Made by a program: the position numbers and the translations under genes. This document shows, piece by piece, positions 1 through 61,097 of a stretch of 64,000 nucleotides of DNA. The notes under the pieces were generated by a model. That model saw only the letters and a list, made by a program, of their open reading frames with translations, searched no databases and was not told where the DNA came from. Position 1 is the first letter of the stretch. Every line of letters begins with the position of its first letter. Source of the DNA: a virus (taxonomy: Duplodnaviria > Caudoviricetes); IMG/VR virus record IMGVR_UViG_3300032216_001965, positions 1 to 64,000 of that record. One strand, 5' to 3'.

Positions 1-7
1 ATAAAAA

Positions 8-1891
8 ATGGCAACAGTAAATAAAGATTTTAAAATTAAGAGTGGTCTTATCGTTGAGGGTTCAACAGCAACCGTAGGCGGATATGATGTTCTTACAAAG
101 AAGCAAGGAGACCAAGATTATATTGTTGGTCTTATTGGTGGTACAGCAACATCTGCTAACACTGCTAACACAGTTGTAAAGCGTGATGCATCAGGTAACT
201 TTGCTGCAGGAACAATTACAGCAGCAGTTACAGGAAATGTAACAGGTAACGTAACAGGAAACGTAACAGGTAATTTAACTGGTAACGTAACTGGTAACGT
301 ATCAGGTTCTGCTGGAACAGTAACAAGCCTTTCAGGTAATTCAACAACAGGACTTACAGAAGGAACTAACCTTTACTTCACAGATGAAAGAGCACAAGAT
401 GCAATTGGAAACAATCTTGGAACTGGTCTTTCATACAATGATTCAACAGGTGCAGTTTCTGTAACAGCAGGAACATATGATGCATATGGTGCAGCATCTG
501 CAGCACAATCTGCAGCAGAAGCAACAGCATCAGCAGATGCAACATCAAAGGCTAACGCTGCACGGACTGCAGCAGAGGCTACTGCATCAGCAGATGCAAC
601 CGCCAAGGTTGCAGCAGAAGCAACTGCAAGAGCAACTGCTGTAACTTCAGCAATCTCAACTGCAGCAGCAGATGCTACTTCAAAGGCTAACGCTGCACGT
701 ACTGCAGCAGAATCAACTGCAGCAGCAGCACTTTCATCTGCAATATCAACAGAAGTTTCAAACCGTAATATAGCAATCGGAGCAGCAATTGATGCAGTTG
801 TAGATGGTGCACCAGCACTACTTGATACATTGAATGAATTGGCAGCAGCAATAAATGATGATGCTAATTACACAACAACTATTACAACTGCATTGGGAAC
901 AAAAGCCCCACTTGCATCACCAGCATTAACTGGTACACCTACAGCACCAACTGCAGCAGCAGGTACAAATACAACTCAGGTCGCAACAACTGCATACGCA
1001 AAGGCAGCAGCAGATGCTGCACAGACTGCAGCAACTACAGCAGCAGCATCAGATGCTACTACAAAGGCTAACGCAGCACAGGCAGCAGCAGAGGCTACAG
1101 CAGCAGCAGATGCAACTTCTAAGGTTGCAGCCGAAGCAACTGCTCGTGCAACAGCAGTTACAAATGCAATATCAACCGCATCAGCAGATGCAACTTCAAA
1201 GGTTGCAGCAGAAGCAACAGCACGTAATACTGCAATTGCTACAGCAATCTCAACAGAAGTTTCAAATCGTAACACAGCAATTACTTCAGCAGTAGATGCA
1301 ATTGACACAGACGCAATTGAAGAGGGTACAGTTAATAAGTACTTCCTAGATTCTCGTGCTAAGGCTTCAGCAGCAGATCTTTTGACTGGCGCTACAAAGA
1401 CTAACATCACAATTACAGGTTCAGGTTCAGGCCTTGTTATTACCGCAGAAAACGGTGTAGCAGATTCTACAACTTCAGACCTTACAGAAGGTTCAAACCT
1501 TTACTTTACAAATGCTCGTGCAGTATCTGCTGTACAAGCAGTTGTTCCAAACTTTACATCAGTTGATTTGAATTCAGTTGCTAAGCAAGTTGCAGCAACT
1601 CTTTCAGCACCAACTGCTGGAGTTCAAACAGCACACGCTTTTGCAAAGGCTGACTATCGTTCAGCAGAATACCTTGTAAAGGTTGCATATTCAACACACA
1701 CTGAAATATCAAAGGTTCTTTTGACTCTTGATACTTCAGATAATATTGCAATTACAGAATACGGAATGGTAGGAACAAATGGTTCACTATCAGCAGTTTC
1801 TGCAGGTATCTCAGGAGCAAATGTACAACTTCTAGTAACAACTGCTAACAATAACTCAACAGTTACTGTTATGGGAACACTACTTAAGTAA
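8..1891 (+). CDS. Tail fibre / virion appendage protein (Ala/Thr-rich, modular)
   Basis: VTGN tetrapeptide repeats; three LTEGxNLYFT-type repeats; P2 gpH-like fibre repeat DGAPALLDTLNELAAAINDD...KAPLASPALTGTPTAPTA; C-terminal domain of the YRSAEYLV...ITEYG type seen in phage virion proteins. Confidence 0.75.
   Translation: MATVNKDFKIKSGLIVEGSTATVGGYDVLTKKQGDQDYIVGLIGGTATSANTANTVVKRDASGNFAAGTITAAVTGNVTGNVTGNVTGNLTGNVTGNVSGSAGTVTSLSGNSTTGLTEGTNLYFTDERAQDAIGNNLGTGLSYNDSTGAVSVTAGTYDAYGAASAAQSAAEATASADATSKANAARTAAEATASADATAKVAAEATARATAVTSAISTAAADATSKANAARTAAESTAAAALSSAISTEVSNRNIAIGAAIDAVVDGAPALLDTLNELAAAINDDANYTTTITTALGTKAPLASPALTGTPTAPTAAAGTNTTQVATTAYAKAAADAAQTAATTAAASDATTKANAAQAAAEATAAADATSKVAAEATARATAVTNAISTASADATSKVAAEATARNTAIATAISTEVSNRNTAITSAVDAIDTDAIEEGTVNKYFLDSRAKASAADLLTGATKTNITITGSGSGLVITAENGVADSTTSDLTEGSNLYFTNARAVSAVQAVVPNFTSVDLNSVAKQVAATLSAPTAGVQTAHAFAKADYRSAEYLVKVAYSTHTEISKVLLTLDTSDNIAITEYGMVGTNGSLSAVSAGISGANVQLLVTTANNNSTVTVMGTLLK
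226..305 (+). repeat. Imperfect 12-bp tandem repeat encoding (VTGN)n
   Basis: gtaacaggtaac-like units; protein AVTGNVTGNVTGNVTGNLTGNVTGNVSG. Confidence 0.85.
909..1022 (+). repeat. 114-bp perfect direct repeat, copy 1 (copy 2 at 4497-4610)
   Basis: Base-by-base alignment from cacttgcatcacc to gatgctgcac is identical in both fibre genes, including synonymous sites. Confidence 0.9.
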
Positions 1892-1957: not shown

Positions 1958-2419
1958 ATGACAGCAGCATCAGTCACAGTCGATAAAGACTTCAGAGTTA
2001 AAAATGGATTAGTCGTAGCAAATGGCGGTCTATTTGGCGGAACAGTTACAGTAGCAACACCTACAAGTAATTCTCACGCAGCAACAAAGGAGTATGTCGA
2101 TTCACGCTCAATGGCTGTCGGAGATACGGCTCCCTCTTCACCAACTAATGGAACACAATGGTTGGACACTCTAACAAATAGAGTTAACTTTTATTATGGT
2201 GGATCTTGGTATACACAAGCAACTCTTGATGATACACATAATATCCCACAGCACATTCACGATACAGCAATTGATGGAACAGGACTTATTGTAAGTATGT
2301 TTGTTGAATCTGGTTTTCCAGATAGCCCAATGACTTCGAATACAGATTCTGGTAATGCATCAGATACAGTTTTCACATCTACAATAGATGGTGGATTAGC
2401 AATAGATAATTTCAATTAA
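1958..2419 (+). CDS. Small virion/fibre adaptor protein
   Basis: N-terminus VDKDFRVKNGLVV paralogous to the N-terminus of 8-1891; HAATKEYVD and APSSPTNGTQWLDT fibre motifs; C-terminal IDGG; SD gaggag. Confidence 0.65.
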   Translation: MTAASVTVDKDFRVKNGLVVANGGLFGGTVTVATPTSNSHAATKEYVDSRSMAVGDTAPSSPTNGTQWLDTLTNRVNFYYGGSWYTQATLDDTHNIPQHIHDTAIDGTGLIVSMFVESGFPDSPMTSNTDSGNASDTVFTSTIDGGLAIDNFN

Positions 2420-2473: not shown

Positions 2474-4021
2474 ATGGCAGTTAGACAACAACAGCGTAGA
2501 GGTACTGCATCACAATGGACTGCAGCAAACCCAATTCTTTCAGCAGCCGAAATTGGTGTTGAAATTGATACAAATAAATTTAAGATTGGTGATGGAACTA
2601 ATCGCTGGGCAGACCTTGTTTACTTCACTGCAGATGCAGCAGCAGCAATTAATGACCTAATCGATGGTGCTCCAGATCTACTCAATACCCTCAATGAACT
2701 AGCAGCAGCAATCGGAGACGATGCAAATTTTGTTACAACAATGACAACAAATCTTGCAGCCAAGGCTCCAAAAGCGTCACCTACATTTACTGGAACAGTA
2801 TCTGGTGTAACTAAGTCTATGGTAGGTTTAGGAAATGTAGACAATACTTCTGATGCCAATAAGCCAGTCTCAACAGCAACTCAGGCTGCGCTTGACCTTA
2901 AGGCTAACTCAGCAGATATTACAGAACTTTCGCAAGATGCTGTCAACTCAGCACTTACTGCAGGATCAGGTATTACAAAGACCTATAATGATGCAGCAAA
3001 TACAATTACAGTTGCAGTAGACTCAACAATTGCAACAAAGACATATGCAGATGGTAAAGCATCTGACGCACAGACTGCAGCAGCAGCGGATGCAACTACC
3101 AAGGCTAATAATGCCAAGTCAGGTGCAGAAACTACAGCAGCAACTGCTCTTGCTTCACACGAAGCAGATACAACAAATATTCACGGTATTGCAGATACTT
3201 CTGCTCTTGCAACAAAAACATACGCTGATAATGCAGCATCTACTGCAGTAGCAGCAGTTGTTAACTCAGCACCAGAAGCCCTTGATACACTTAGGGAACT
3301 TGCAGATGCTCTTACAGCAGACGAATCAACAGCAGCAACACTTGCTACTTTAGTAGGAACAAAGGCACCTTCTGCAAACCCAACCTTTACTGGAACAGTA
3401 CAAGGTATCACAAAATCTATGGTAGGTTTAGGAAATGTTGATAACACATCTGATGCAAATAAGCCAGTTTCAACTGCCACTCAAACAGCACTAGATGCCA
3501 AACTTGCTTCTGCAACTGCAGCATCAACATACGAAACAATTTCAAATGTAGCACTTAAGGCACCACTTGCTTCACCTACATTTACTGGAACTGTTTCAGG
3601 AATTACAAAGTCAATGGTAGGACTGGGTTCTGTAGATAATACAGCAGATACAGCAAAGCCTGTTTCAACCGCTCAACAGACTGCACTTGACCTAAAGGCT
3701 CCACTTGCGAACCCAACATTTACTGGCACAGTCTCTGGTATTACATCAACAATGGTTGGTCTTGGAAACGTAGATAATACTTCAGATGCTAATAAACCAG
3801 TCTCAAGTGCTACACAAACAGCACTTGACCTGAAACTTGCTTCTGCAACTGCAGCATCAACATATGCACCACTTGCTTCACCAGCACTTACTGGAACACC
3901 AACAGCACCAACAGCATCTTATTCAACAGATTCTACACAATTAGCAACAACTGCTTTTGTAAAATCTGTATTAAATAATATTGGATCGTTAAATCTCGTC
4001 CTTGATGGCGGGGGAGCGTAA
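2474..4021 (+). CDS. Tail fibre protein with Mtd_N/hyaluronidase-like N-terminal domain
   Basis: RRGTASQWTAANPILSAAEIGVEIDTNKFKIGDG N-terminal motif; repeated KAPLASPTFTGTVSGITKSMVGLGNVDNTSDANKPVSTATQ fibre modules; ends in LDGGGA. Confidence 0.8.
   Translation: MAVRQQQRRGTASQWTAANPILSAAEIGVEIDTNKFKIGDGTNRWADLVYFTADAAAAINDLIDGAPDLLNTLNELAAAIGDDANFVTTMTTNLAAKAPKASPTFTGTVSGVTKSMVGLGNVDNTSDANKPVSTATQAALDLKANSADITELSQDAVNSALTAGSGITKTYNDAANTITVAVDSTIATKTYADGKASDAQTAAAADATTKANNAKSGAETTAATALASHEADTTNIHGIADTSALATKTYADNAASTAVAAVVNSAPEALDTLRELADALTADESTAATLATLVGTKAPSANPTFTGTVQGITKSMVGLGNVDNTSDANKPVSTATQTALDAKLASATAASTYETISNVALKAPLASPTFTGTVSGITKSMVGLGSVDNTADTAKPVSTAQQTALDLKAPLANPTFTGTVSGITSTMVGLGNVDNTSDANKPVSSATQTALDLKLASATAASTYAPLASPALTGTPTAPTASYSTDSTQLATTAFVKSVLNNIGSLNLVLDGGGA
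3716..3792 (+). repeat. 77-bp perfect direct repeat, copy 1 (copy 2 at 4805-4881)
   Basis: acatttactggcacagtctctggt...tcagatgctaa is identical in genes 2474 and 4079. Confidence 0.9.
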
Positions 4022-4078: not shown

Positions 4079-5731
4079 ATGTCAACAAGAATGCAACAAA
4101 GAAGAGGAACTTCTTCTCAATGGACAACAGCAAATTCAGTACTTGCTTCTGGTGAAATTGGTTTTGAAACCAATACTGGAAAGTTTAAGATTGGCAATGG
4201 CACAAGCGCTTGGGCTGATCTTGTTTATTATGCATCATCAGATGATGTAGCAGCAATTATTGATGGTGCTCCTACAGCACTAAACACATTAAAAGAATTA
4301 GCAGCAGCAATTGATAATAATGCATCTTTTGCATCAACAATTGTTCAGTCATTAAGTGAAAAGGCTTCAACAGCATCAGTTTCAACAAGTTTTACAAGTG
4401 AAAGAAGTTATACAAACTCAGCAATAACAAGTGCTATTGACTCAGAAGTTTCATCAAGAAACTCAGCAATTTCAACTGCTGTATCAGGTCTTGCCTCACT
4501 TGCATCACCAGCATTAACTGGTACACCTACAGCACCAACTGCAGCAGCAGGTACAAATACAACTCAGGTCGCAACAACTGCATACGCAAAGGCAGCAGCA
4601 GATGCTGCACGGACTGCAGCAGAGGCTACAGCAGCATCAGATGCTACTACAAAGGTAGCAACAGAAGTTACAAATCGTAACTCAGCAATTTCAACACACA
4701 ATTCTGCTACTACAAATGTACATGGAATTACAGATACATCAGCATTAGCATTAACTGCAACCGTTAACTCAGGATTGGCACTTAAGGCTAACCTTGCCTC
4801 ACCTACATTTACTGGCACAGTCTCTGGTATTACATCAACAATGGTTGGTCTTGGAAACGTAGATAATACTTCAGATGCTAACAAGCCAGTATCTACTGCA
4901 ACAACAACAGCCCTTGCTTTAAAGGCTCCATTGGCCTCACCTACATTTACTGGCACAGTAACAATTCCTGCAGGCGCAAGCATCTCAGGTTTTGCCCCAC
5001 TTGCTTCACCAGCATTGACAGGAACTCCAACTGCTCCAACAGCAGCAGCAGGAACTTCAACTACACAGGTTGCAACTACAGCATTCGTAGGAACAGCAGT
5101 TTCAAACCTTGTTGCATCAGCACCTGCAGCACTTGATACTCTTAATGAACTAGCAACTGCTCTTGGAAATGACGCATCATTTTCAACAACAATTACAAAT
5201 GCACTTGCAGCAAAGGCTCCACTTGCTTCACCAACATTTACAGGAACTGTAACAATTCCTGCAGGCGCAAGCATCTCAGGTTTTGCCCCACTTGCTTCAC
5301 CAACATTTACAGGCACAAACACTGTGGCAGCACTTACAGTATCTGGTTCTGGACTAATAACAGCATCTTCTGCTGGTGTAGCATTTACAGATGGTACACA
5401 GACTAAAGAAGGAGTTATCTCACGTACACCAATTGTACAAAAGACAGCATCTTATACACTTTCAGCATTGACAGAAAGAGATTCACTTGTTGAAATTTCT
5501 TCAGCATCTGGAGTAACTTTAACAGTTCCTACAAATGCAACAGTTGCTTACCCAGTAGGAACATCTATTGATATTCTTCAAACTGGAGCAGGACAAATTA
5601 CTGTTGCAGGTGCCAGTGGCGTTACAATCAATGCAACACCAGGATTAAAGTTAAGAACACAATGGTCTGGAGCAACTCTGTTTAAGAGAGCAACAGATAC
5701 TTGGGTTCTCTACGGCGATCTATCAGCATAA
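4079..5731 (+). CDS. Tail fibre protein with Mtd_N-like N-terminus and C-terminal adaptor domain
   Basis: RRGTSSQWTTANSVLASGEIGFETNTGKFKIGNG; P2-like fibre repeats; C-terminal VTINATPGLKLRTQWSGATLFKRATDTWVLYGDL domain common in phage fibres. Confidence 0.8.
   Translation: MSTRMQQRRGTSSQWTTANSVLASGEIGFETNTGKFKIGNGTSAWADLVYYASSDDVAAIIDGAPTALNTLKELAAAIDNNASFASTIVQSLSEKASTASVSTSFTSERSYTNSAITSAIDSEVSSRNSAISTAVSGLASLASPALTGTPTAPTAAAGTNTTQVATTAYAKAAADAARTAAEATAASDATTKVATEVTNRNSAISTHNSATTNVHGITDTSALALTATVNSGLALKANLASPTFTGTVSGITSTMVGLGNVDNTSDANKPVSTATTTALALKAPLASPTFTGTVTIPAGASISGFAPLASPALTGTPTAPTAAAGTSTTQVATTAFVGTAVSNLVASAPAALDTLNELATALGNDASFSTTITNALAAKAPLASPTFTGTVTIPAGASISGFAPLASPTFTGTNTVAALTVSGSGLITASSAGVAFTDGTQTKEGVISRTPIVQKTASYTLSALTERDSLVEISSASGVTLTVPTNATVAYPVGTSIDILQTGAGQITVAGASGVTINATPGLKLRTQWSGATLFKRATDTWVLYGDLSA
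4958..5302 (+). repeat. 54-bp perfect intragenic repeat (4958-5011 and 5249-5302)
   Basis: gtaacaattcctgcaggcgcaagcatctcaggttttgccccacttgcttcacca occurs twice. Confidence 0.85.
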
Positions 5732-5762: not shown

Positions 5763-7094
5763 ATGGCAGTAAATAAAAAAATGGGTGGTCACTCACAGTC
5801 AGCAAATGACTTTTTAGCACCCTATGCTCCAACAATCGGAACAGCAACAAATGTTCCTTCAGGCCGTGCATATAATAATGGACGGATTGATGTAACATTT
5901 ACTCCAGATTCAAGATATGCAGCAACATCTTTCACTGTCACATCTTCTCCTGGAGGTTATACAGGAACTGGATCAGCATCTCCAATTACTGTCACTGGTC
6001 TTCAATCTAATACATCTTATACATTTACTGTAACTGCAACAAATAACTATGGAACTTCATCAGCATCTTCTGCATCTAATAGCATAACTGCTACCACAGT
6101 TCCAGATACAGTTGCTACTCCTTCAGTATCTACAGTAGCAATTGGTGGTGCTTCAGCCCAAGGTTCTGCAAATACTGCAACAGATACAGTTTCATGGTCT
6201 GCTCCAGCAGATGGTGGTTCAGGAATTACAAACTACCACTGGACATCATCTGATGGAAAATCAGGGGATACTGGATCTACATCTATTTCAGTATCACAAG
6301 AATCTGGAACAGCGCAGACTTATTCTGTTTATGCAACTAATGCTAATGGAAATGGTGGAACTGGTACATCTGGTTCAATAACATCTGCTTTCTCATTTAC
6401 ACCGTTTGGATTTACTCCATTTGGATTTACTCCATTTGGATTTACTCCATTTGGTGCATTTGGTTTTGCACCATTTGGTGCCTTTGGTGCATTTGGTGCA
6501 TTTGGTGCCTTTGGTGCCTTTGGTGCATTTGGTGCATTTGGATTTACACCTGCAGGACCAAGAGATGGTGTAAATAATCAAGTTGGCGCACGTTTCTATT
6601 TTAATACTTTCTCACTAAACTACAACACTCAGGTTGTTATGGCTCCAGTTCCTGGTCAGCCAGATACAACAAAACCTGCAGGTGAACTAGTTGTTGGAGA
6701 TAAACTAAAGGCACTTGATTTAGGAGATGTTCCTGCTAATTTAAGAGAAGCAGTATTTACAGAAGATCTTGATATGACTAAAATTGTTGAAACAGAAATT
6801 GTTAGACTTGATCATCATGATGAAACAATATTTATTTATGTTGACGGCGATCTATTCTCAAGAAGTCACTGGATTCTTGCTAAAAAAGATGGAGTAATTT
6901 CATTTATTAAGTCTGATGCAATTGATACAACTTACCAACGCTACTCTCCAGAAGACACAGCATGGGTAGATATTCAAATTGTTGAACAAGTTGAGTTGGC
7001 AATGACTAAAGTTACTATTAACTGTGAGCCTTACGATAACTTCTTCACTAAGAAGATGCTTGTATTTGACGGTCCAGATCTGCCAACAGAATAA
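5763..7094 (+). CDS. FN3-domain virion protein with FG-rich repeats and C-terminal Hint-like domain
   Basis: Two FN3-like units (VTGLQSNTSYTFTVTATNNYG; VSWSAPADGGSGITNY); FGFTP/FGA repeats; C-terminal ~153 aa match Hint blocks A (SLNYNTQVVM...GELVVGDKL), B (SRSH) and F/G (INCEPYDNFFTKKMLVFD). Confidence 0.7.
   Translation: MAVNKKMGGHSQSANDFLAPYAPTIGTATNVPSGRAYNNGRIDVTFTPDSRYAATSFTVTSSPGGYTGTGSASPITVTGLQSNTSYTFTVTATNNYGTSSASSASNSITATTVPDTVATPSVSTVAIGGASAQGSANTATDTVSWSAPADGGSGITNYHWTSSDGKSGDTGSTSISVSQESGTAQTYSVYATNANGNGGTGTSGSITSAFSFTPFGFTPFGFTPFGFTPFGAFGFAPFGAFGAFGAFGAFGAFGAFGAFGFTPAGPRDGVNNQVGARFYFNTFSLNYNTQVVMAPVPGQPDTTKPAGELVVGDKLKALDLGDVPANLREAVFTEDLDMTKIVETEIVRLDHHDETIFIYVDGDLFSRSHWILAKKDGVISFIKSDAIDTTYQRYSPEDTAWVDIQIVEQVELAMTKVTINCEPYDNFFTKKMLVFDGPDLPTE
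6395..6551 (+). repeat. 15-bp (FGFTP) and 9-bp (FGA) coding tandem repeats
   Basis: tttggatttactcca-type units followed by a run of tttggtgca/tttggtgcc units. Confidence 0.9.
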
Positions 7095-7124: not shown

Positions 7125-7871
7125 ATGAAAAAAAATAAACCTTCAAAGGTTAAGTTTATATCAACAATGCCTAAAAGTCCAGGTATATTTCCAGAACCTG
7201 AACCAGCATATAAACATATACCTTCATGGTACAAAAAAGTTGAATCTTTTTACAATGGAGACTCAACACCTCAGAATGGTCATCAAAATATAACAGTCAA
7301 AAGGTGTATTGCATTTTTAGACATGCTGTCTACTGGCTATTTTTTACTTGCACCATTTGATATTTATATAGATACAACAGATGGAAAACAAACTTTTGAT
7401 ATTCCTGCAGGTGTTCTTGGTTTACAAAATATGGGAGTTAAGCAGTTTATTGGAAACCACGATATGCGTCAAGTCGATGGTTATCCATTTGATAAAAATA
7501 TATTTATAGATTATTTATTTAGAGTACATCCTATATGGATTGTTAAAACTGATCCAGGAGTAAGTTGTATGTTTATACAACCACAACATCATGAAGAATC
7601 TCCACTATATGCTATATCTGCAGTAATTGATACAGACTCCTATTCTTCTGACGGACTTCTATCATTTTTAGTTAAAAAGAATTTTAAAGGAGTTATTAAA
7701 AAAGGAACTCCAATGGTTCAGGTAATACCTTTTGTTAGAAAAGATTATGAATCTGAAATAATTTTAAATCAAGAAGAATACTCAATCATAAAATCACAAG
7801 GAATTAAAATTAGAACTGTTTTTAATTCTGGATATAAAAAATATTTTTGGAAAAAGAAAAAATATATTTAA
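7125..7871 (+). CDS. DUF6065-like protein (dUTPase-like beta fold suspected)
   Basis: IPSWYKK...TVKRCIAFLDMLSTGY...IDTD...IKKGTPMVQVIPFVR motifs; clear paralog at 59697. Confidence 0.6.
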   Translation: MKKNKPSKVKFISTMPKSPGIFPEPEPAYKHIPSWYKKVESFYNGDSTPQNGHQNITVKRCIAFLDMLSTGYFLLAPFDIYIDTTDGKQTFDIPAGVLGLQNMGVKQFIGNHDMRQVDGYPFDKNIFIDYLFRVHPIWIVKTDPGVSCMFIQPQHHEESPLYAISAVIDTDSYSSDGLLSFLVKKNFKGVIKKGTPMVQVIPFVRKDYESEIILNQEEYSIIKSQGIKIRTVFNSGYKKYFWKKKKYI

Positions 7872-10005: not shown

Positions 10006-13000
10006 ATGTCTAGTCCATCAAATTTATATGCAGAAAAGGTGTTTGCAGAACACCCAACAGTTTTGTGGGCACTAGATGATAAAGCAGATTACATTTCTTT
10101 AATTAATGAAGAAAAAAGATCTGTTTTTAATTGGTCAGTATCAGGTGGAACAGCAGAAGAGTTTATTTCTGTATATGATGAACCATTTATTGATAGTTCT
10201 GTAACTAAACTTATTGGAGAAATAACTACCGAAGATTTTGGAGAACTTGTCTGCATAAGTGATAATTTAAATAACTTTAATGTTTTAAATTCATATATGT
10301 CTACTTTTTCAATTGGAGCATATGTAAATTCAATAAGTTCTTATATTGCTGGAATTGAAATAGGTTATGAATACTATGATCCATTAAGTGGTGAAGTGGT
10401 TCAAAATTTAAAAAATTATAATACATCTGTATACGGAAAATGGATTTTTGTTTCAGAAACTTTTGAAATTCCAAATAAAAATACTACATTTAGAATTGTA
10501 TTAAAGGTTAAATATATTAGTGGTGCTCAGTCTGAAAATGATTATCAATTTCTTGTTAATGGTATAACTCTTGGTCAGTGGTCAGAAGAGTTTAACTCAA
10601 CATCTTTAGGAACACAAAAAGTACTAGTTTCATCAGATATAGCAATGAATGAATCATATGGAATTAAAGCAGAGGCTTATGGTTTGTCGGATTCGCATGG
10701 ATATTACATGATTTCTGACAATGCACTTGTTGCAAAAAATTCTGGTATTCCTTTAGTTTATGGTTCTACAAGTACGACAATATTAAAAGAAAATGCAGGA
10801 CTTCCATCTTTAATAATTCCTGGAAATGGGTTTTTAAATGAAAGTGGTAAGTTTAAAGAGCAAACATTAGAAATGTGGCTTAGGATTAATTCTGATACAA
10901 ATATAAAGAAAAGAATATGTGGTCCAATTTCTTCTTCAGATGGAATTTATGTAGATGGACCTTTTATAATTTTAAAAATTGATAATCATTATGGATCTCA
11001 CTATATTGGTGAATGGGTAAGGCCAATGATTATTCATGTTAGATTAACAAATAATTCGGCCAATCTTCTTATTAATGGAGAACAGGTAATTTCATTAAAT
11101 TTAATAACTACAGAACTTAATTTGCCAAATAAATATAATTCCGAGGGCAAGGATCAGGACTGGATTGGATTCTATGCCTATGAAGATGTATCTCCTATTG
11201 AAGTAGACTGTATTGCAATTTATCCTTATCAGGTTCCAGCAATTGTTGCAAAAAGAAGATTTGTTTATGGTCAGGGTGTTGAAGTTCCAGAAAATATTAA
11301 TGCATCATATAGCGGAACATCTCTTTTTATTGATTACCCATTTTCAAATTATTCAAATAACTACTCTTATCCAGACATTGGTAGTTGGTCTCAAGCATCC
11401 ATAGATAATCTAGTTGCATCAAACAATAAATTATCTTTACCAGAATATAAGTTACCAACAATATTTTTTAATAATAAAACAACTGAAGATTGGTATACAG
11501 CATGTAAAAATATACAAAATGAATCAAGTATGTTATTTAGATTAAGACCAAATTCTGATTGGAATTCTACAAGTGGATATATATTGTTTGATAGTTTAGA
11601 TGTTACAAATACTCCAATTAGATCTTTTTATGGAGTATTTAAAGTTTTATCTACACCAACAACACCGCAAATATTATTTAAGGTTAATGATCAGATCACT
11701 GGAAATTCTTTTGTTATTGAACTTCAGGATACTTTAGAATTAGAATATAAGATTATAAAAGCATCTGGAGAAAAATTTATATATGAAACAGTTGCAGTAA
11801 ATATAGGCGAAGAATTTATTTCTGGTATGGATATTAATACATTTTGTTCACACTATGGACAAGATGTTGCTAGTTTTTTTGGAAATAGATCAGGTCTTAA
11901 ATTGTACGTAGGTGGAGATATAACACTTTCTAAGATGTTTTTAGGAAACATATATAAGATTGGTTTTGCAACCGAAAGAAACTATTCTTTTATTTCGGAA
12001 TGCTTTAATGATTTTGGAACACCAACTAATTTTGAAAATGTATTTAATACTTACAATCAGTATATTGATTATGATGCTGGTCAGTATGCTGGTGCAAGTT
12101 CATATTTCTGGGACTATATTTTAGATGGTGGAAATATTAGTTCTTATTCAACACAAAAACTAGTTGAGCATATAGCAAGTTACACACTAAGTCCAAAAAA
12201 TTATTTTGATACATTTGCCTTAGACATAGATATAGACGGATATTGGGAAGATCATATTCCTTTATCGTATTTTGCAAAATATGTTAAAAATGCAAAAAAT
12301 GAATCTTATTATGATTTAGATTTTATACAATTTAATATAAATTATCCAGCACCGTCAAAGTTTGTAGAGAAGTCTCAAATTGGTTCTTGGACATATGACG
12401 AACTTAATTCTGAATACCAAAACCCAATTCAGAGAACTTACGAATCCCTTGACAATCATCTTTTTACTGGTTATATAGATTATTCAGATTTAAAAAATAG
12501 ATCTTTAAAAACATATAAGTATGACACTTCAAATTCATTGGTTAAATCTTATGTAAGTTTTCAATATGTTTCAACTGGAGCAAATGCCAAAGACTCTTAT
12601 TTTACAAATATAGAGTCACCATTGCAAAATGGAATCGTTGAGCCAGGAACATATCTTTTGGGATATGATGATAATAACAAACCAATATATGATAATTTTA
12701 TAAATACTAAGTATGAAGTTGTTGATGGAATGTTGTTGTATCCACCAAGAGGAACTGATTTTAGTCATCTTGCAGTAGTTGTTCACTTAAATTTTAAAGT
12801 TAGTGGAATTTTAAATAACCCTATTAAAATTAAAAGTTTGCAGTTAGCAGCACAGGCATACAATGATGTTGCTCCAAATCCAATTGGAAGCAGATTTGGT
12901 GTTCAGGTTTACCCATATACAAAAACTGGTATTTACTATGATTACAAGAAACCAAACCCATATACAATTTATAAAGGCAGTTCTCCATATCTCTACCTTA

Positions 13001-13740
13001 CTAAAAACTCTGGAATACAAGTAAAGGGTTCATATGATCCATTAGTAAATCGTGGACTTTCAATTCCAGTTAATCCAAATAAATCTTCTAACTATAAAGT
13101 TATGGCTATGCAAGCAGCAATTAGATATGATCAAGATTTTTTCCCATATGCTCCAACACAAATTTTTGAGATTGAAAGTAAAAATGATCTCATAAAGTTT
13201 TACATGGTGGCAAATCATCCAGATGGTAAAAGAGCAAAAATTTATGCAATTAATGCAAGAACTGGTCAAGTTGAAAACGGTATTGGATTTTATTGGAATG
13301 GCAACCTTGTAAAAGAACCAAACATAACAATCAGAGAGTGGGGAATGCTTGGTGTATCATTCTCAAGTATCATAAACTTTGATAACTATGTTGGATCAAT
13401 TAAAATTAATGGTCCCTTACTTGTAAATCTTGTTTCTCATTATAAATCTACAAATTTACAAGAAGTTCAAAATATTACAGAAAGGCCTTGGTTTAAGGTC
13501 AAATATTTAGGACCTTTAGATTTAGAGTGGAACTACTGGAACTCAGCATATGTTTGGAATGGTGTATTGGTCTTATCTACTAAGTCTTACTATGGAGTAG
13601 ATCCCTCTGATGTGTATAAAAGTTATGTTGGCACAAACAAAATAATCGTAGACGATACAAGAAAATTTAGGTTAAATTCATATCAATATGAACTTTATAC
13701 GGATATTGTTTGGCAGTCTCAAATATCAAATCCAGTATAA
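10006..13740 (+). CDS. Large virion structural / minor tail protein
   Basis: 1244 aa, beta-rich LamG-like segments (TLEMWLRI..., LLINGEQV); located among structural genes. Confidence 0.55.
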   Translation: MSSPSNLYAEKVFAEHPTVLWALDDKADYISLINEEKRSVFNWSVSGGTAEEFISVYDEPFIDSSVTKLIGEITTEDFGELVCISDNLNNFNVLNSYMSTFSIGAYVNSISSYIAGIEIGYEYYDPLSGEVVQNLKNYNTSVYGKWIFVSETFEIPNKNTTFRIVLKVKYISGAQSENDYQFLVNGITLGQWSEEFNSTSLGTQKVLVSSDIAMNESYGIKAEAYGLSDSHGYYMISDNALVAKNSGIPLVYGSTSTTILKENAGLPSLIIPGNGFLNESGKFKEQTLEMWLRINSDTNIKKRICGPISSSDGIYVDGPFIILKIDNHYGSHYIGEWVRPMIIHVRLTNNSANLLINGEQVISLNLITTELNLPNKYNSEGKDQDWIGFYAYEDVSPIEVDCIAIYPYQVPAIVAKRRFVYGQGVEVPENINASYSGTSLFIDYPFSNYSNNYSYPDIGSWSQASIDNLVASNNKLSLPEYKLPTIFFNNKTTEDWYTACKNIQNESSMLFRLRPNSDWNSTSGYILFDSLDVTNTPIRSFYGVFKVLSTPTTPQILFKVNDQITGNSFVIELQDTLELEYKIIKASGEKFIYETVAVNIGEEFISGMDINTFCSHYGQDVASFFGNRSGLKLYVGGDITLSKMFLGNIYKIGFATERNYSFISECFNDFGTPTNFENVFNTYNQYIDYDAGQYAGASSYFWDYILDGGNISSYSTQKLVEHIASYTLSPKNYFDTFALDIDIDGYWEDHIPLSYFAKYVKNAKNESYYDLDFIQFNINYPAPSKFVEKSQIGSWTYDELNSEYQNPIQRTYESLDNHLFTGYIDYSDLKNRSLKTYKYDTSNSLVKSYVSFQYVSTGANAKDSYFTNIESPLQNGIVEPGTYLLGYDDNNKPIYDNFINTKYEVVDGMLLYPPRGTDFSHLAVVVHLNFKVSGILNNPIKIKSLQLAAQAYNDVAPNPIGSRFGVQVYPYTKTGIYYDYKKPNPYTIYKGSSPYLYLTKNSGIQVKGSYDPLVNRGLSIPVNPNKSSNYKVMAMQAAIRYDQDFFPYAPTQIFEIESKNDLIKFYMVANHPDGKRAKIYAINARTGQVENGIGFYWNGNLVKEPNITIREWGMLGVSFSSIINFDNYVGSIKINGPLLVNLVSHYKSTNLQEVQNITERPWFKVKYLGPLDLEWNYWNSAYVWNGVLVLSTKSYYGVDPSDVYKSYVGTNKIIVDDTRKFRLNSYQYELYTDIVWQSQISNPV

Positions 13741-13758: not shown

Positions 13759-14163
13759 ATGAATATTGAAAATCCAAATAAAAAACGTAAAACCTTGCCA
13801 AAAATGAAGGGCCAAGTGGGTGAGTCTCGTGCAAAAATTATTGAAAAACATTATGATTGGGGCCTATATGTTTATAAAAAGGCTAATGGCAAATGGTTTA
13901 CAGATGGAACTGGATCTGTTTTAAACATTCCGTCAATGAAGGGCGATATAACAAAAATCTCTGAATTAAAAAAAGCAGCAAAACATTATGGGGATGAGGG
14001 AGATGGAGAATGCATCTTCGTGCCAGGGTTAACTAGAATTTCAGAAGAAGAATATTCAGAACAAAAACAAAGAATGGCAGAAGGATTAATTCCTTCTATG
14101 AATGATCTTGGCGCAGTTCAAGCAGCAAAAGATACTATTGCAAAATACGGGAGTGATGACTAA
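13759..14163 (+). CDS. Hypothetical protein upstream of portal
   Basis: Open frame coupled to portal (TAATG); ATG 13759 preferred over GTG 13753 from promoter spacing. Confidence 0.7.
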   Translation: MNIENPNKKRKTLPKMKGQVGESRAKIIEKHYDWGLYVYKKANGKWFTDGTGSVLNIPSMKGDITKISELKKAAKHYGDEGDGECIFVPGLTRISEEEYSEQKQRMAEGLIPSMNDLGAVQAAKDTIAKYGSDD

Positions 14164-15782
14164 TGTCAGAAGAAAATGAATATATTGTTCGTGCATCTAT
14201 GGATAACTTTGCACAAGAGTTAGATGTTTTTAAAGAGCAAGATCCATTTAACAAAACCTGGGATGAATTAAAAACTTTATCTGGATTAGACAATAATTTT
14301 AAGCGTCGTGCTGCAAGACTATCTAAGGTAGATGCTTCACAGCAATACATTGATAGTTCTAGAGCAGAAAGTACAGGTCTGGATGGAGCAAGATCAAAAG
14401 AAATTAATCCAGGACTTGTTTATAGAAATGGCTATGGTTTGTTTGATGTAATTACACCACCATGGAATCTTTACGAACTTGCAAGTTACTATGATACTTC
14501 ATTTGCAAACCATGCTGCTATTGATGCAAAGGTAGAGAATATTGTTGGGCTTGGTTATGACTTTGAGGTATCTTCAAGAACAATGCTTAAATTAGAATCT
14601 TCTTCAGATTCAGAAGCAGTTGGTCGTGCTAGAAAAAGAATTGAAAGAGCAAAAATAGAATTAACAGATTGGTTAGAAAGTTTAAATAGTGAAGATTCTT
14701 TTACCACTACAATGGAAAAAGTTTACACAGATGTTCAAGCAACTGGAAATGGTTATATTGAGGTTGGACGTACAGTAAAAGGTGAAATTGGATACATTGG
14801 TCATATTCCATCAGTAACGATGAGAGCAAGAAGATTGCGTGATGGATTTGTACAAGTTATTGCAAACAAAGTTGTTTATTTCCGTAATTTTGGAGCAACA
14901 AACCCAAATCCACTTGGAACAGATCCAAGACCAAATGAGATTATTCATTTTAAAGCATATTCTCCAATAAACACTTTCTACGGTGTTCCAGATATTATCT
15001 CTGCGGTTACATCTCTTCAAGGAGACATGCTTGCATCACAGTACAACATTGACTACTTTAGCAATAAAGCAGTTCCACGATATGTTGTAACACTTAAGGG
15101 TGCAAAACTTTCTGGAGAAGCAGAAGATAAGATGTTTAGATTCTTACAGACTGGAATGAAGGGGCAAAATCATAGAACTCTTTATATACCACTCCCAGGA
15201 GATTCAGATACAAACAAAGTTGAGTTTAAGATGGAGCCAATTGAAAATGGTGTTCAAGAAGGTTCATTTGAAAAATATCGTAAACAAAATCGTGATGATA
15301 TTTTGGTTGCTCATCAAGTGCCACTTTCAAAACTTGGTGGATCGGATTCTTCTGCCACAGCAGCAGCCCTTGCTCAAGATAGAACATTTAAGGAGCAGGT
15401 TGCAAGACCAGCACAAAGAGAACTTGAAAAACCAATCAATAAGATCATTCGTGAAAAAACAGATATTCTTCAATTTAAGTTTAACGAATTAACTCTAACA
15501 GATGAGATTGCACAGTCACAAATTCTTGAAAGATATGTCAAGAATCAAATTATGCTTCCAAACGAAGCAAGAACTATTTTGCGTATGCCACAGCGTGATG
15601 GCGGAGATCAGCCATTAGACCTCACATCACAACAAGTAGCAGATGCAACTACAACAAGGTCAAGAGATAGTCAAAGAACTAATAACCAATCTGATGGATC
15701 AGCAACGATTGCTGGAAGAAATCCAAAGGGTGAGGGTAGAAAATTTGATGAAATTGATAGCATTGCCGAAATGTCCGAATAG
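14163..15782 (+). CDS. Portal protein
   Basis: HAAIDAKVENIVG, GNGYIEVGR, EIIHFK..YGVP, YFSNKAVP, ILVAHQVP and IMLPNEAR portal motifs; position before protease and capsid. Confidence 0.9.
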   Translation: MSEENEYIVRASMDNFAQELDVFKEQDPFNKTWDELKTLSGLDNNFKRRAARLSKVDASQQYIDSSRAESTGLDGARSKEINPGLVYRNGYGLFDVITPPWNLYELASYYDTSFANHAAIDAKVENIVGLGYDFEVSSRTMLKLESSSDSEAVGRARKRIERAKIELTDWLESLNSEDSFTTTMEKVYTDVQATGNGYIEVGRTVKGEIGYIGHIPSVTMRARRLRDGFVQVIANKVVYFRNFGATNPNPLGTDPRPNEIIHFKAYSPINTFYGVPDIISAVTSLQGDMLASQYNIDYFSNKAVPRYVVTLKGAKLSGEAEDKMFRFLQTGMKGQNHRTLYIPLPGDSDTNKVEFKMEPIENGVQEGSFEKYRKQNRDDILVAHQVPLSKLGGSDSSATAAALAQDRTFKEQVARPAQRELEKPINKIIREKTDILQFKFNELTLTDEIAQSQILERYVKNQIMLPNEARTILRMPQRDGGDQPLDLTSQQVADATTTRSRDSQRTNNQSDGSATIAGRNPKGEGRKFDEIDSIAEMSE

Positions 15783-23403: not shown

Positions 23404-26400
23404 TTGTCTGATGTAAACGCTAATATTGGCATTGTCTTCGATACCACAGAGGCTCTTGTTAGTTTACGTCAATTACAGGCTGGTTTAAGTAGATTTAATC
23501 AGTCATTAACTCAGGGCAATATTGCAGCATCAAATGCTCAAAAAGGTCTTAATGATCAACTAGTTCAATCAATTAACTCTACTGGTAAATTTGTAGCATC
23601 ACAAAAAACAGTAGCAACAAGCACAACTGCATTTACATCAGCACTTGAAAAAAATAAACTCAGTATGCGTGAGTATTTTAGATATACTGCTGCTGCAGCG
23701 ACAGCAAATACAAAAGTTTTGAATAATGCTTTTACTGCTGAAAGAGATATTATAAACCGTGCTCGTAAAGATAGGGTTAAATCACTTCAATCTCAATATG
23801 TTCAATTAACCAGTGCCAATGGAGAATTTATAAAAGTTTTACAGGTAGTTCCAAAACATCTTGAAATGGTTAATGGCAAGTATACAGATTATGCTACTAG
23901 AGTTCAAATGGCTGCACAAAGACAGCAACTTCTTAATCAGTTAATAAAACAAGGCTCAAACCAACTTTTAAATTTTGGTAAAAATACCCAATGGGCGGGT
24001 CGTCAGTTGATGGTTGGTTTAACAATTCCATTAACAATGCTTGGATCTGTTGCAATGAAAACATTTAAAGATATGGAAACAGCAATAGTCAAATTTCAAA
24101 GAGTTTATGGAGATATGACTACAACCAATGATGCAACTAATAAAGCAGTTGAAGATATTAAAAAACTTGGTATGGAATTTACTAAATATGGTGTTGCAGT
24201 AAAAGATACTATTGAAATGGCTGGTTCGGCTGCAGCGATGGGTCTTACTGGAAATGCATTAAACCAACAAATAATTGCAGCAACAAGGCTTGCAGTTCTT
24301 GGTCAAGTATCTCAACAAGATGCTTTGCAAACAACTATTTCTTTGCAAAATGCATTTGGCATATCTTCAGAAGACCTTGGCAAAAAAATTAATTATCTTA
24401 ACGCAGTAGAAAACCAAACTGTTCTATCTATTGAAGATATGACTACTGCTATTCCAAAGGCTGCTCCTGTTGTCAAACAACTTGGAGGCAGTGTAGAAGA
24501 TCTTGCATTCTTTTTAACAGCAATGAAGGAAGGTGGCATTAATGCATCAGAAGGTGCTAACGCACTTAAGTCTGGACTTTCTGCATTAATCAATCCATCT
24601 AAAAAAGCATCAGACTTTCTTGCAAATCTTGGTGTTAATATAAATGGTATTGTTAAAGCAAATGCAGGGGATTTAAAAGGAACAGTAGTAGGATTTGCAA
24701 GAGCATTAGATACACTTGCACCACTAGAAAGATCTCGTGCCATCGAACAATTATTTGGAAAATTTCAATTTGCTCGTTTATCAACATTATTTCAGAATGT
24801 TACAAAAACAGGATCCCAGGCAAGTCGTGCTCTTGATCTTGCTGGAAAATCTACAGAAGAACTTGCAATTTTATCTGAAAGAGAATTAGGTAAAGTAGAA
24901 AATGCAGTTAGCGTAAAGTTTCAAAAATCAATTGAGCAATTAAAACAAGAACTAGTTCCAGTAGGAAAAGCATTTTTACAAGCACTTACACCAATAGTAA
25001 ACTTTTTTGGAAAATTATTGGATAAGTTTAATAACTTTAGTGATGGAACAAAAAAAACAATTGCTATTGTAGTTGGTGTAGTTGGTGGACTTGCACCAAT
25101 TGCTCTTATGACTTTTGGTTTGCTTGCTAATGGTATTGCAAACCTTATTAAATTTTTTGCAATGCTTCGTGGAGGAATGGCTAAACTTAATGGACAAAAT
25201 TCAGTACTTGGTGGAGGATTTGATTATTTAACACAACAAGAAATTGATAACCTAACAGAAACAAATGCCCTTCACATGTCTCATAAAAACCTTATTGAAA
25301 CTTTTAATGTTGAGGTTGGATCTGTAAATGCTTTAGCAACAGCATATGCAAATGCTGGATCACAAGCAAGAGCCCTTGCTGCATCAAGTCCAGGACTATT
25401 TAATGCATCCCCTGGTGCAAAAGGCGCTGTTTCTAAAATTAAATTTTCTTCGGGTGGAGTAGTTCCAGGAACTGGAAACTCAGATACTGTTCCTGCAGTT
25501 TTGACTCCTGGAGAAGTTGTATTAACAAAGCAAACAGTTAAAGATAACCCAGAGACTGTTGCAGCATTGCAAAATGGAAATGTTAGAAAATACATGGCTG
25601 GCACTGCAGATAATTCAAGAAGCGGTGCAAGTTATCGTGGAGTTCATAATCTTATTATGGGAAGATCTGGACTTGACAATGGTCAAACATCTCAATCTCA
25701 AGTAGTTTCATCTTCTAAAGATCTACCAGGATTTTTACAAAAAGAATATGACAGAATTGCTAAATTAAATGAAGCAAACCTTAAGCGTTATGCAGAACTT
25801 ACTGGTATGGGCACAGAAAAAACAATGGAAGAAATCCGTAATGCAGTCCTTAAAAACTTTGAAGAACTACTTGCAGAAGTTAAGGCAAAAACTGGAAAAC
25901 TTACACAAGAAGGATTAAATGAAATAGGAAAGGCCCCAGGAGCCAATGGTGGTCCAAGTATTATGGGCAAATGGTTTAAAAAGTTTGATGAAGGTCAAGG
26001 TGCATCCTTCGCACACGTAGGAGATACTCAAAAAGTTGACATTGGAACAGCAATTGATTTAAAAGTTTCTTCAAAGATTCAAAAACAAATGGATATTGTT
26101 AAAGCATATTATGCAGAAACTGGCAGACAGGCTCCAGATGTAAGAGTTGCAGATGCTTTTGGTTTTGATATGAAACAGTCTGTTAATAGAGGTATGGCAA
26201 GCACAAATCAAAAGAATTTTGAAAAGAAAAATGGTAAAACTGTTGGTGCTGCATTTGAAGAAGAGTTTGCAAAAACTGGTGCTCAAAAATGGAAAACCAT
26301 GACAGATCTTGTTGGCGCAGATTTTGATAAAATACATGGACAGGCAGAAATTTATGATAAAGCATTACTTCAAAAAATTCAAGCATGGAATAAAAAAAAC

Positions 26401-57777: not shown

Positions 57778-57807
57778 TTGACATCCCCTTTTAGGTAATG
57801 GTATACT
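57778..57807 (+). promoter_or_regulatory. Promoter TTGACA-N18-TATACT with TG extension
   Basis: Near-consensus; heads the modifying-enzyme cluster. Confidence 0.75.
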
Positions 57808-57833
57808 TTATATATCCTAGAAGGGGATTCTAC

Positions 57834-58526: not shown

Positions 58527-58534
58527 GAGAAAAA

Positions 58535-59059
58535 GTGACTTGTATTGCTGTAGTAAAACATGAAGATAAAATCTATATGGCTGGAGATCGTGGTGCCTCA
58601 GATGATGGAACTATCCTATCACTTGATGCCCCTAAAGTTTGGAAAATAGGTCCATATCTTATTGGGTATGCTGGAGCAATGGATGGAGAAAGAATCCGTT
58701 ATAATTTTAAGCCAACACCTCCAAATATTAAAGACACAGATAAGTTTATGCAGACAAAGTTTGTAAAAGAGTTGCGTGAATTCTATAATGAGTTTTGGGT
58801 CGATACATCTAAAGATGGAGACCTTGGTTTAATAATTGCAGTTCGTGGAAACATATATGAACACAGTTCTGCTGATATGTCTTTATCTAAGTACACACTT
58901 CCTTATCTTGCAATGGGGTCTGGTGCGGAGTATGCATATGGTGTTTTATATGCAACTGACAAACAAAAGAATGCAAGAAATAGAGTCATGCAAGCAGTCA
59001 GTGCTGCCATTAAGTTCAACCCATCATGCATGGGTCCCGTGGATGTCATAAGTATTTAA
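58535..59059 (+). CDS. Proteasome-beta/HslV-like Ntn-hydrolase (threonine peptidase)
   Basis: After Met removal: Thr1, Asp17 and Lys33 at canonical positions; GSG motif (MGSGAEYAYG). Confidence 0.8.
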   Translation: MTCIAVVKHEDKIYMAGDRGASDDGTILSLDAPKVWKIGPYLIGYAGAMDGERIRYNFKPTPPNIKDTDKFMQTKFVKELREFYNEFWVDTSKDGDLGLIIAVRGNIYEHSSADMSLSKYTLPYLAMGSGAEYAYGVLYATDKQKNARNRVMQAVSAAIKFNPSCMGPVDVISI

Positions 59060-60431: not shown

Positions 60432-60439
60432 GAGAAAAA

Positions 60440-61096: not shown

Positions 61097-61097
61097 T

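Follow-up and report, generated by a model that had tools for sequence, protein, structure and literature searches.

The gene at 5763-7094, the last of a tail-fibre cluster in the uncultured-phage DNA analysed here (a stretch of 64,000 nucleotides, called the window below), ends in what structural modelling identifies as a Hint domain of the intein/Hedgehog type. Our preferred reading, to which we give a probability of roughly 0.6, is that this domain is an autoprocessing cap like those of BIL and Hedgehog proteins, which would cleave at F283|S284 and free an FN3-FN3-FG protein with an aromatic tail. The gene, its parts and its downstream neighbour are as follows:

5763..7094, + strand: whole gene (P0001), 443 aa, an open ORF with the order FN3, FN3-like, aromatic repeat, Hint, short tail
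5763..5819, + strand: conserved N-terminal leader MAVNKKMGGHSQSANDFLA, about 18 aa, continuing into the first FN3 and common to 117 other proteins
5886..6074, + strand: FN3 domain 1, residues 42-104 (Pfam PF00041 fn3, E 7.7e-7, above the gathering score)
6186..6368, + strand: second FN3/PKD-like beta domain, residues 142-202 (sub-threshold PKD_6/PKD matches only)
6384..6551, + strand: aromatic low-complexity tract, residues 208-263, (FGFTP)x4 then (FGA)x~10 (from the sequence and tandem DNA repeats)
6552..6611, + strand: linker AGPRDGVNNQVGARFYFNTF, predicted to be disordered; its last residue, F283, is the predicted -1 position
6609..6614, + strand: predicted scissile junction F283|S284, with S284 on intein Cys1 and Hedgehog Cys258
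6612..7070, + strand: Hint (Hedgehog/intein) domain, S284-D436, 153 aa (AF2, Foldseek, VIA-align, hhalign)
6858..6869, + strand: block B, S366-R-S-H369, the TxxH equivalent (family conservation)
7008..7070, + strand: blocks F/G KVTINCEPYDNFFTKKMLVFD, with F435 in place of the penultimate His and D436 in place of the terminal Asn (alignment and hhalign)
7071..7091, + strand: acidic tail GPDLPTE, 7 residues, with Gly as +1 (from the sequence)
7125..7871, + strand: downstream neighbour, 248 aa, phrog_7084, DUF6065-like, conserved, a paralogue of 59697-60431

Fold and domain layout

An AF2 model of residues 270-443 (pLDDT 85.7, pTM 0.82) gave 46 Foldseek matches at E<=1e-3, all of them Hint domains and with E values down to 6e-7, and VIA-align superposed the model on the Hint structures of BIL, intein and Hedgehog proteins with Z 14-18 and an rmsd of about 1.9 A. 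The resemblance to Hint domains, which the sequence-only reading had drawn by eye, is borne out by these comparisons. Model residues 15..167 (S284..D436) cover residues 1..440 of the Mtu RecA intein, 1..454 of PI-SceI, 1..159 of Ssp DnaE and 258..402 of Hedgehog in the VIA-align superpositions, where S284 lies on residue 1 of the RecA, PI-SceI and DnaE inteins and on Cys258 of Hedgehog. D436 superposes on the terminal Asn of solved Hint structures; both termini of the domain coincide with catalytic termini in the solved structures of inteins, BIL and Hedgehog domains (AF2, Foldseek, VIA-align).

Profile comparison by hhalign with the canonical Cys1...His-Asn Hint of orthologous proteins gave a probability of 99.7% and an E value of 3.6e-26, placing MLVFD on IVTHN and block B, S366-R-S-H369, on the F[ST]xEH of the canonical sister domain. 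The earlier assignment of Ser284 as residue 1, of S366..H369 as block B and of D436 to the terminal-Asn position agrees with both superposition and hhalign, and its sequence details (S366-R-S-H369, the end ...NFFTKKMLVFD of the Hint segment and the 7-residue tail GPDLPTE) were exact. The Hint domain alone has no Pfam match even at E<=10 and none in NCBIfam, and neither PHROGs nor a PDB sequence search returned a Hint match for the protein or its Hint part; relatives reach only Intein_splicing below threshold (best E 1.6e-6, 28 bits against a cut-off of 35.8) or Hint_2. The domain was recognised through structure prediction and profile comparison. Among the checks that had been suggested, structure prediction (AF2, Foldseek, VIA-align) returned a Hint and the Pfam search did not. 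Judged by its conservation, the resemblance is not a chance one, because the domain and its key residues are kept in 87 cluster representatives.

Upstream of the Hint, the two FN3-like domains proposed earlier have unequal standing: the first is a Pfam fn3 match, while the second gives a sub-threshold PKD/FN3-like match, its start carrying an FN3-like motif, W-x-x-P...GG-x-I-x-x-Y, that is kept across aligned homologues. The aromatic tract is encoded by two tandem arrays (15-bp x4 and 9-bp x10.8), and the number of FGA copies varies among relatives, reaching about 30 units in one of them (L014). The linker that follows is taken to be disordered because its pLDDT is below 50 in the AF2 model.

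No terminator-like site was found between the Hint gene and its neighbour at 7125-7871. The DUF6065 match is weak and occurs in the paralogue at 59697-60431 only, and the AF2 model of the neighbour is poor (pLDDT 63; best matches dUTPase-like, Z <= 7.7). Genes of the 2OG type adjoin Hint genes often, not always, one being absent beside P0012 and lying two genes downstream at P0081. We do not claim the neighbour as a 2OG-oxygenase-type modifier of the repeat, given the weak match in the paralogue, the poor model and an adjacency that is not universal.

Conservation, orthologues and distribution

The Hint family comprises 87 cluster representatives, all metagenomic and some down to about 25% identity. 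Residue conservation was counted over an alignment of 98 sequences, with denominators that vary by position. Position 1 (S284), whose survey among homologues the sequence-only reading had called for, is Ser in 73/76 aligned sequences, Thr289 is conserved in 69/78, position 366 is [ST] in 89/94 (S 68, T 21) and the block-B His (H369) is kept in 89/94. Position 435 is H in 36, F in 30 and Y in 20 sequences, and position 436 is Asp or Asn in 91/96 (D 80, N 11). The family-specific motif INCEPYD.FFT is strongly conserved, and C421-E-P-Y-D425 and K374/K375 are invariant beyond the core Hint motifs. The domain always stands at the extreme C-terminus, with a tail of median length 6 aa, behind 40 residues of low complexity rich in F (21%), P (20%) and G (14%). 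Tails of the closest homologues (P0001-P0015) start with x-P-[DE], and members of a His-Asp branch have Ser/Thr at +1 in 31/36 cases. The N-terminal modules vary among the relatives scanned (fn3 in 24/50, PASTA in 17/50). A reading of long family members as tail-tip J proteins was dropped, the Ig_J_second match merely overlapping an FN3.

Syntenic orthologues of the gene are present at 10 loci. Its N-terminus is common to 118 proteins, among which 68 carry a canonical Cys1...His-Asn Hint, 22 the Ser1/Asp type and 12 no Hint. Different Hint subfamilies thus occupy the same N-terminal module, as an interchangeable cap. The canonical orthologues share the leader, the FN3 domains, the FxP/FG repeats and a homologous Hint with our protein; they differ in having Cys1, His-Asn and a tail of 1-4 aa, nearly always with a Lys, where the window type starts with Ser1, ends in Phe/His/Tyr-Asp and has an acidic tail. 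Among the orthologue Hints, some look degenerate, with ends like ...LVYHLYPID or a block B without His. The 12 Hint-less orthologues stop straight after the aromatic repeat, and two of them, inspected in the DNA at the syntenic locus, showed no Hint remnant. A free aromatic C-terminus is therefore a viable end state. As far as their sequences tell, these orthologues agree with a mature protein whose aromatic tail is free, and are equally compatible with a dispensable Hint chemistry.

Among cultured phages (50,697 phage records; blastn, tblastn) no match was found for the gene, its Hint part or its N-terminal part. A survey of 185,579 species genomes gave one match, a phage-like 10-kb contig of a Lake Mendota MAG, which is the same phage lineage, probably mis-binned, and is no reliable host clue. 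The layout of FN3 domains and aromatic repeat with a C-terminal Hint is common in uncultured phages. Literature searches on Hint or BIL domains of phages or tail fibres yielded nothing beyond ordinary inteins (terminase, RNR) and autocleavage of the S74 type, and found no description of a C-terminal Hint cap in phages, which matches the earlier remark that none was known for a phage appendage.

Relation to known Hint and autocleaving systems

Type-A BIL domains (Amitai 2003; Dassa 2004) share the Hint fold of our protein (C. thermocellum BIL, PDB 2lwy: Z 16.3, rmsd 1.9 A over 130 residues), an N-terminal Cys/Ser nucleophile, the lack of an endonuclease and a non-nucleophilic +1 residue, here Gly. 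They sit in variable regions of non-conserved proteins, as the present family sits on variable modules with a low-complexity junction. Type-A domains are, however, defined by a His-Asn end and usually have Cys at position 1, whereas ours ends in Phe435-Asp436 and starts with Ser. The window type is further set apart by its own motif set, INCEPYD.FFT, by matching no Pfam Hint model at threshold, and by its place, always extreme C-terminal behind an aromatic/Pro-rich repeat and almost only on uncultured phage contigs. BIL domains in general are known from variable, non-conserved, surface-type proteins, carry no endonuclease, have a non-nucleophilic +1 and are expected to autocleave (PMC7765530).

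Hedgehog/Hog proteins (PDB 1at0, 6tyy; Z 16.4-16.5, model residue 15 on Cys258) share the logic of an N-terminal functional domain, a linker and a C-terminal Hint that cuts itself away through an acyl shift at its first residue. Their Hint is followed by a sterol- or adduct-recognition region, where our protein has only 7 aa; they are eukaryotic with Cys at residue 1, ours viral with Ser and an F|S junction. The Hedgehog junction is G|C. The best structural match is BIL2 of the Tetrahymena thermophila BUBL1 locus (PDB 6y75/6tmm; Z 17.9, rmsd 1.8 A, 135 residues), at 16% identity to the window Hint. It lies between ubiquitin-like domains and carries Cys1/Asn, whereas the window Hint stands behind an aromatic repeat and has Ser1/Asp. 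Class 1 mini-inteins (Ssp DnaB, Mtu RecA, gp41-1) agree with it in fold, and their blocks A, B, F and G match those of the window Hint in register along the whole length of the domain. They sit in a conserved host protein, however, which the window Hint does not, and its C-extein of 7 residues, +1 Gly and penultimate Phe also differ; splicing is not expected.

The closest functional analogy is offered by Peptidase S74 domains (K1F endosialidase, T5 pb1), C-terminal appendage domains that cleave themselves off after folding or assembly. S74 trimeric chaperones use a Ser-Lys dyad. Fold and chemistry are unrelated, the C-terminal domain of the window protein having the Hint fold, and no Pfam or PHROG match to Peptidase S74 was found in it. 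Background on intramolecular-chaperone autocleavage by S74 domains of tailspikes and fibres is given in PMC3742443 and PMC8326128.

Predicted autoprocessing and its alternatives

We infer a modular structural-region protein in which leader, two FN3-type domains and FGFTP/FGA tract are followed by a Hint that would act as a single-turnover cap. After folding, Ser284 would attack the F283 carbonyl (an N-O acyl shift), aided by S366..H369 of block B; the resulting ester would be resolved, most likely by water; and a mature protein of 283 aa ending in ...FYFNTF would be freed, the 160-aa fragment of Hint plus tail being discarded. The conserved Ser1 and block-B residues are those to be expected of a working acyl-shift site. 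Moreover, the Hint stands at the extreme C-terminus, behind an F/P/G-rich stretch, in an arrangement like that of Hog and BIL proteins, which release their N-terminal part. The C-terminal half of the active site reads as non-canonical, with Phe at the penultimate His and Asp at the terminus, and our protein probably has little or no C-terminal cleavage or splicing activity, because the penultimate residue is Phe, not His, and +1 is Gly. A simple cut-and-discard scheme assigns no role to INCEPYD.FFT or to the x-P-[DE] tail, which may indicate an extra function. The virion tip is a candidate location, suggested only by the position of the gene (after three Mtd_N/tail-fibre genes) and by its FN3 content.

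The domain, whose sequence has diverged beyond the reach of Pfam models, could also be a Hint retained but catalytically silent, a folded C-terminal knob on a flexible aromatic linker that would serve binding or structure. Phe and Asp in place of penultimate His and terminal Asn suit this explanation, as do the degenerate-looking Hints of some orthologues; we regard it as unlikely, however, since the first-step residues (Ser1, block-B Ser/Thr and His) are near-invariant over the 87 representatives, a binding role needs no Ser at position 1 right behind a disordered linker, and the same scaffold can bear canonical Cys1/His-Asn Hints in its stead.

We see it as distinctly unlikely that the F283 ester is captured by a specific nucleophile instead of water, in a Hint-mediated ligation by which the aromatic tail would covalently anchor the FN3-FG protein. 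Possible targets include another virion protein, through a Lys or hydroxyl, and the host envelope, through an amine or lipid (compare Hedgehog with cholesterol and Tetrahymena BIL2 with its isopeptide). The Hint would then be an ATP-independent 'warhead', a Hedgehog/BUBL-style ligase stapling the protein to virion or host envelope, and, at the same low odds, 2OG-Fe(II)-oxygenase-type neighbours might also modify the Phe/Pro-rich tract. The region that recognizes an adduct is nevertheless absent after the Hint, the window protein's tail lacks the Lys found in the tails of Cys1-type orthologues, Hint-less orthologues at the same locus would be incapable of such ligation, and the proposed partner is hypothetical. 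Conservation of the N-terminal catalytic half, the unexplained role of the invariant C421-E-P-Y-D425 and K374/K375, the Lys in nearly all 1-4-aa tails of Cys1-type orthologues, and PASTA domains (of peptidoglycan-binding type) in 17 of the 50 relatives speak on the other side. So does BIL2, the nearest structural neighbour, whose Hint ester/thioester serves conjugation and forms a Lys isopeptide (PMC8616854).

Very unlikely, in our view, is self-splicing or self-ligation, in which the Hint would be excised and GPDLPTE joined to F283, either canonically or by BIL-type aminolysis after cyclisation of Asp436. The sequence-only reading had held that a Hint cannot splice without the terminal Asn, which overstates the case, as BIL domains are able to ligate even when +1 is no nucleophile, Asp or Gln can replace that Asn in some inteins (PMC4031507), and the His-Asp branch with Ser/Thr at +1 has the full class-1 residue set. 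The x-P-[DE] motif kept in the tails of close homologues also speaks for self-ligation. Against this stand the penultimate Phe and +1 Gly of the window protein, family tails that are short and variable, and Hint-less orthologues without a comparable acidic tail at their end. A conventional mobile mini-intein or its remnant, inserted by chance near the end of a fibre-cluster gene, is extremely improbable and was dropped: the fold with intein-like blocks and the sub-threshold Intein_splicing matches of relatives notwithstanding, there is no homing-endonuclease insert, the site is an extreme C-terminal one between low-complexity repeat and 7-aa tail and not a conserved site of an essential enzyme, the position is constant on varied FN3/PASTA scaffolds, +1 is non-nucleophilic, and the annotation of the RNR and DNA polymerase that the phage itself encodes shows no Hint/intein match.

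Hint chemistry is known from protein splicing, from the release of bacterial toxins and adhesins and from Hedgehog lipidation. With Ser1, few cysteines and 153 aa, the domain is a candidate self-cleaving tag, one that stands beside an extremely hydrophobic N-extein. Furthermore, the locus is a natural experiment, in which one FN3/aromatic-repeat scaffold carries a Cys1/His-Asn Hint, a Ser1/Asp Hint or none. If Hint domains routinely cap structural-region proteins of phages, they would give phage appendages a new route to maturation, and possibly to ligation.

Gene layout and predicted fold of ORF 5763-7094

The window is single-strand sequence from an IMG/VR phage record of 75 kb, estimated to be 68% complete, and encodes portal, prohead protease, major head protein, long tail genes, DNA polymerase and terminase.

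Genes around ORF 5763-7094, and parts of its product
8-1891: first tail-fibre-type gene, at the left end of the window
1958-2419: small ORF (153 aa)
2474-4021: second tail-fibre-type gene, with Mtd_N
4079-5731: third tail-fibre-type gene, with Mtd_N
5763-7094: Hint gene, open ORF (443 aa), directly after the three tail-fibre-type genes
7125-7871: function-unknown gene (248 aa)
Next: class II ribonucleotide reductase (RNR)
Leader: 18-19 aa
FN3 domain: Pfam, E 7.7e-7
Second FN3/PKD-like domain: Pfam, sub-threshold
Aromatic tract: residues 208-263, (FGFTP)x4 + (FGA)x~10; tandem repeats of 15 bp and 9 bp in the DNA
Linker: 20 aa, between the aromatic tract and S284
C-terminal segment: S284-D436
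Tail: GPDLPTE

All sequence details of this ORF given in the sequence-only reading were correct. Its claim of a C-terminal Hint domain was borne out by structure prediction; sequence searches of Pfam (even at E ≤ 10), NCBIfam, PHROGs and PDB returned no Hint match to the protein. In Foldseek, the top matches of an AF model of residues 270-443, built with 12 homologues (pLDDT 85.7, pTM 0.82), were Hint structures only (46 at E ≤ 1e-3), including Tetrahymena BIL2, Ssp DnaB, a C. thermocellum BIL (bacterial intein-like domain) and Hedgehog, and VIA-align against Hint structures gave Z of 14-18 at about 1.9 Å over 127-141 residues. Because these alignments place model residues 15-167 (S284-D436) on the catalytic ends of solved chains, with residue 1 and the terminal Asn as their limits in the inteins Mtu RecA, PI-SceI and Ssp DnaE, S284 is Hint residue 1 and D436 lies at the inteins' terminal-Asn position; the Hedgehog alignment begins at Cys258. 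Residues preceding S284 have pLDDT <50, and the N-extein is therefore predicted to be disordered. By fold and catalytic residues, the domain belongs to the Hint superfamily.

Conservation in the family and known relatives

Searched exhaustively with phmmer, 1.84 billion representatives yielded 87 clusters with the domain, which is the last element of the protein in every cluster with an intact end. Tails of 2-44 aa (median 6) follow it, and Phe makes up 21%, Pro 20% and Gly 14% of the 40 residues preceding it. The alignment singles out the catalytic set as conserved, including the residue 1 whose conservation the sequence-only reading had proposed to survey.

Conservation in aligned homologues
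Ser1 (S284): 73/76
Thr289: 69/78
Gly-Asp 312-313: 82/87, 81/87
[ST]366: 89/94
His369: 89/94
Glu-Pro-Tyr-Asp 422-425: 89, 93, 80 and 87 of 97
Position 435 (penultimate): H 36, F 30, Y 20
Position 436 (terminal): D 80, N 11

The N-terminal parts differ within the family: among 50 members scanned, 24 carried fn3 and 17 PASTA, with sub-threshold Intein_splicing in four and Hint_2 in one. Their PASTA domains suggest that these phage proteins may bind peptidoglycan. One PASTA/FTP-repeat/Hint member (L015:6001-7608, on a 120-kb contig) lies among collagen-like proteins, an SLT lytic transglycosylase, a Phage_cement_2 decoration protein and Mtd_N fibres; the Hint family is therefore found in more than one structural-module position.

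Of the 36 family members with a penultimate His, 31 have Ser/Thr at +1, the first residue after the domain, and so carry all residues of a class-1 intein except that Asp replaces Asn; terminal Asn can be replaced by Asp in some inteins (PMC4031507). The window's own branch has Phe-Asp, then Gly or Arg. Type-A BILs are the closest known class, but the window domain lacks their defining His-Asn and no curated model recognises it, so we do not file it there; by analogy it may work like a BIL or Hedgehog C-terminal domain. If so, the C-terminal chaperones that cleave themselves off tailspikes would be a functional parallel, with unrelated chemistry.

The domain had no match in cultured phages (50,697 records) and was absent from 185,579 species genomes save for one phage-like MAG contig. 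A literature search found no phage C-terminal Hint cap, only ordinary inteins in phage terminase/RNR genes and S74-type autocleavage, in agreement with the earlier statement that no description was known. The domain is real and conserved, and seems to have no published description.

Neighboring genes

The order fibres, Hint gene, 248-aa gene, RNR and 1244-aa protein is kept in six IMG/VR loci and a Lake Mendota contig, while three IMG/VR loci continue after the Hint gene with 2OG-Fe(II) oxygenase paralogues or with a DUF6065-like paralogue of 59697-60431. Where orthologues have no Hint, the next two genes resemble window 60407-61096, itself similar to 2OG-FeII_Oxy_5 clusters by Atlas features, and 57798-58526. 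The 248-aa neighbor and 59697-60431 are paralogues (30% identity, E 1e-33); the poor model of the neighbor (pLDDT 63) has dUTPase-like matches at Z ≤ 7.7. Since this fold is poorly modeled and the PASTA-type member on the 120-kb contig has no 248-aa/oxygenase-type neighbor, oxygenase adjacency is kept as a lead only.

Together with 7125-7871, window 57798-63998 forms a cluster of about nine small genes, among them the DUF6065-like gene 59697-60431 and at least two 2OG-Fe(II) oxygenases recognised at Pfam level (61939-62538, 62525-63196). The cluster also has a pair of paralogues that share HDH...GHPH motifs, 57798-58526 and 60407-61096, whose nearest Atlas clusters are 2OG-FeII_Oxy_5, together with ORF 58535-59059, which is weakly proteasome-subunit-like, and the N-terminus of a carbamoyltransferase (from 63282). 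These families adjoin the FN3/aromatic-repeat gene downstream in every related locus checked, and are not next to the relative P0012; as modifiers they could act on protein (the Phe/Pro tract) or on nucleotides/DNA. Relatives of 7125-7871, annotated only as hypothetical, occur in tailed viruses of haloarchaea (Halorubrum and Haloarcula viruses) and in cyanophages such as S-RIM44; for a function-unknown protein, this range of viruses is unusually wide.

The Lake Mendota MAG contig (JBIPMB010000265.1, labelled Gammaproteobacteria; Hint gene at L014:4852-6483) is of the same lineage (fibres, Hint gene, 248-aa gene, RNR) and is probably a mis-binned phage. Its FGA repeat has about 30 units vs. about 10 in the window, and repeat length varies greatly between relatives, which come from freshwater metagenomes. 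Elsewhere in the window, a 2791-aa ORF (23404-31779) occupies the place expected for a tape-measure protein, and the 1244-aa ORF between RNR and portal (10006-13740; 48-57% identity in related loci) had no Pfam or PHROG match. The portal (14163-15782) is 47% identical to those of the ~131-kb Streptomyces siphophages BoomerJR and Yaboi, yet window GC is 34.8%.

Alternative C-terminal ends and putative autoprocessing

The first 60 residues of the window protein are common to 117 other proteins, and all 118 were sorted with two profile HMMs. A different, canonical Hint was carried by 68, with Cys1 straight after the aromatic repeat and a His-Asn end followed by 1-4 aa that nearly always include Lys (K, YK or AKAF after HN; also RKAF), which may be a built-in acceptor. 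The window's Ser1/Asp type was found in 22, while 12 have no Hint and stop directly after the repeat, and 16 are others, some visibly frameshifted within the repeat (as are database entries P0118 and P0130). Several Cys1-type caps among P0099-P0198 lack the block-B His (F-S-L-E-E). The Cys1 and Ser1/Asp Hint types are homologous over their full length (hhalign 99.7%, E 3.6e-26, MLVFD on IVTHN). At the DNA level, two Hint-less genes, on contigs of 118 kb and 69 kb, lie at this same locus (Mtd_N fibre, FN3/aromatic-repeat gene, RNR) and end in ...FSAWT or ...AAGDW, with no Hint remnant found after them. Because genes at this locus can end there, a protein with a free aromatic tail is a viable state.

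At Hint sites of this kind, an N-O acyl shift turns a peptide bond of the F283-S284 type into an ester, which in BILs and Hedgehog, without a +1 nucleophile, is resolved by hydrolysis or an external nucleophile (PMC7765530). The window protein has essentially no sequence after the domain, and the terminal Asp/Asn and block-B Ser/Thr..His are conserved. By analogy, we favor an autoprocessing cut at F283-S284, with a probability of roughly 60%: Ser284 would convert this bond to an ester, freeing FN3-FN3-FG (283 aa) and discarding the 160-aa Hint and tail. C-terminal cleavage or splicing is unlikely, because the penultimate residue is Phe and +1 is Gly. That the Hint is instead retained as an inactive knob is improbable, with the catalytic positions as conserved as they are. 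That the ester passes to a partner, for which BIL2 provides a precedent (PMC8616854), is slightly less probable still, and ligation by the Hint of its own tail, here only GPDLPTE, is doubtful. A mobile intein can be practically dismissed for a domain that is always C-terminal.

Since orthologues with a Cys1 Hint, a Ser1/Asp Hint or none share one scaffold, the Hint is an exchangeable, dispensable cap. Under the favored autoprocessing cut, it may hold a very hydrophobic tail soluble until assembly.
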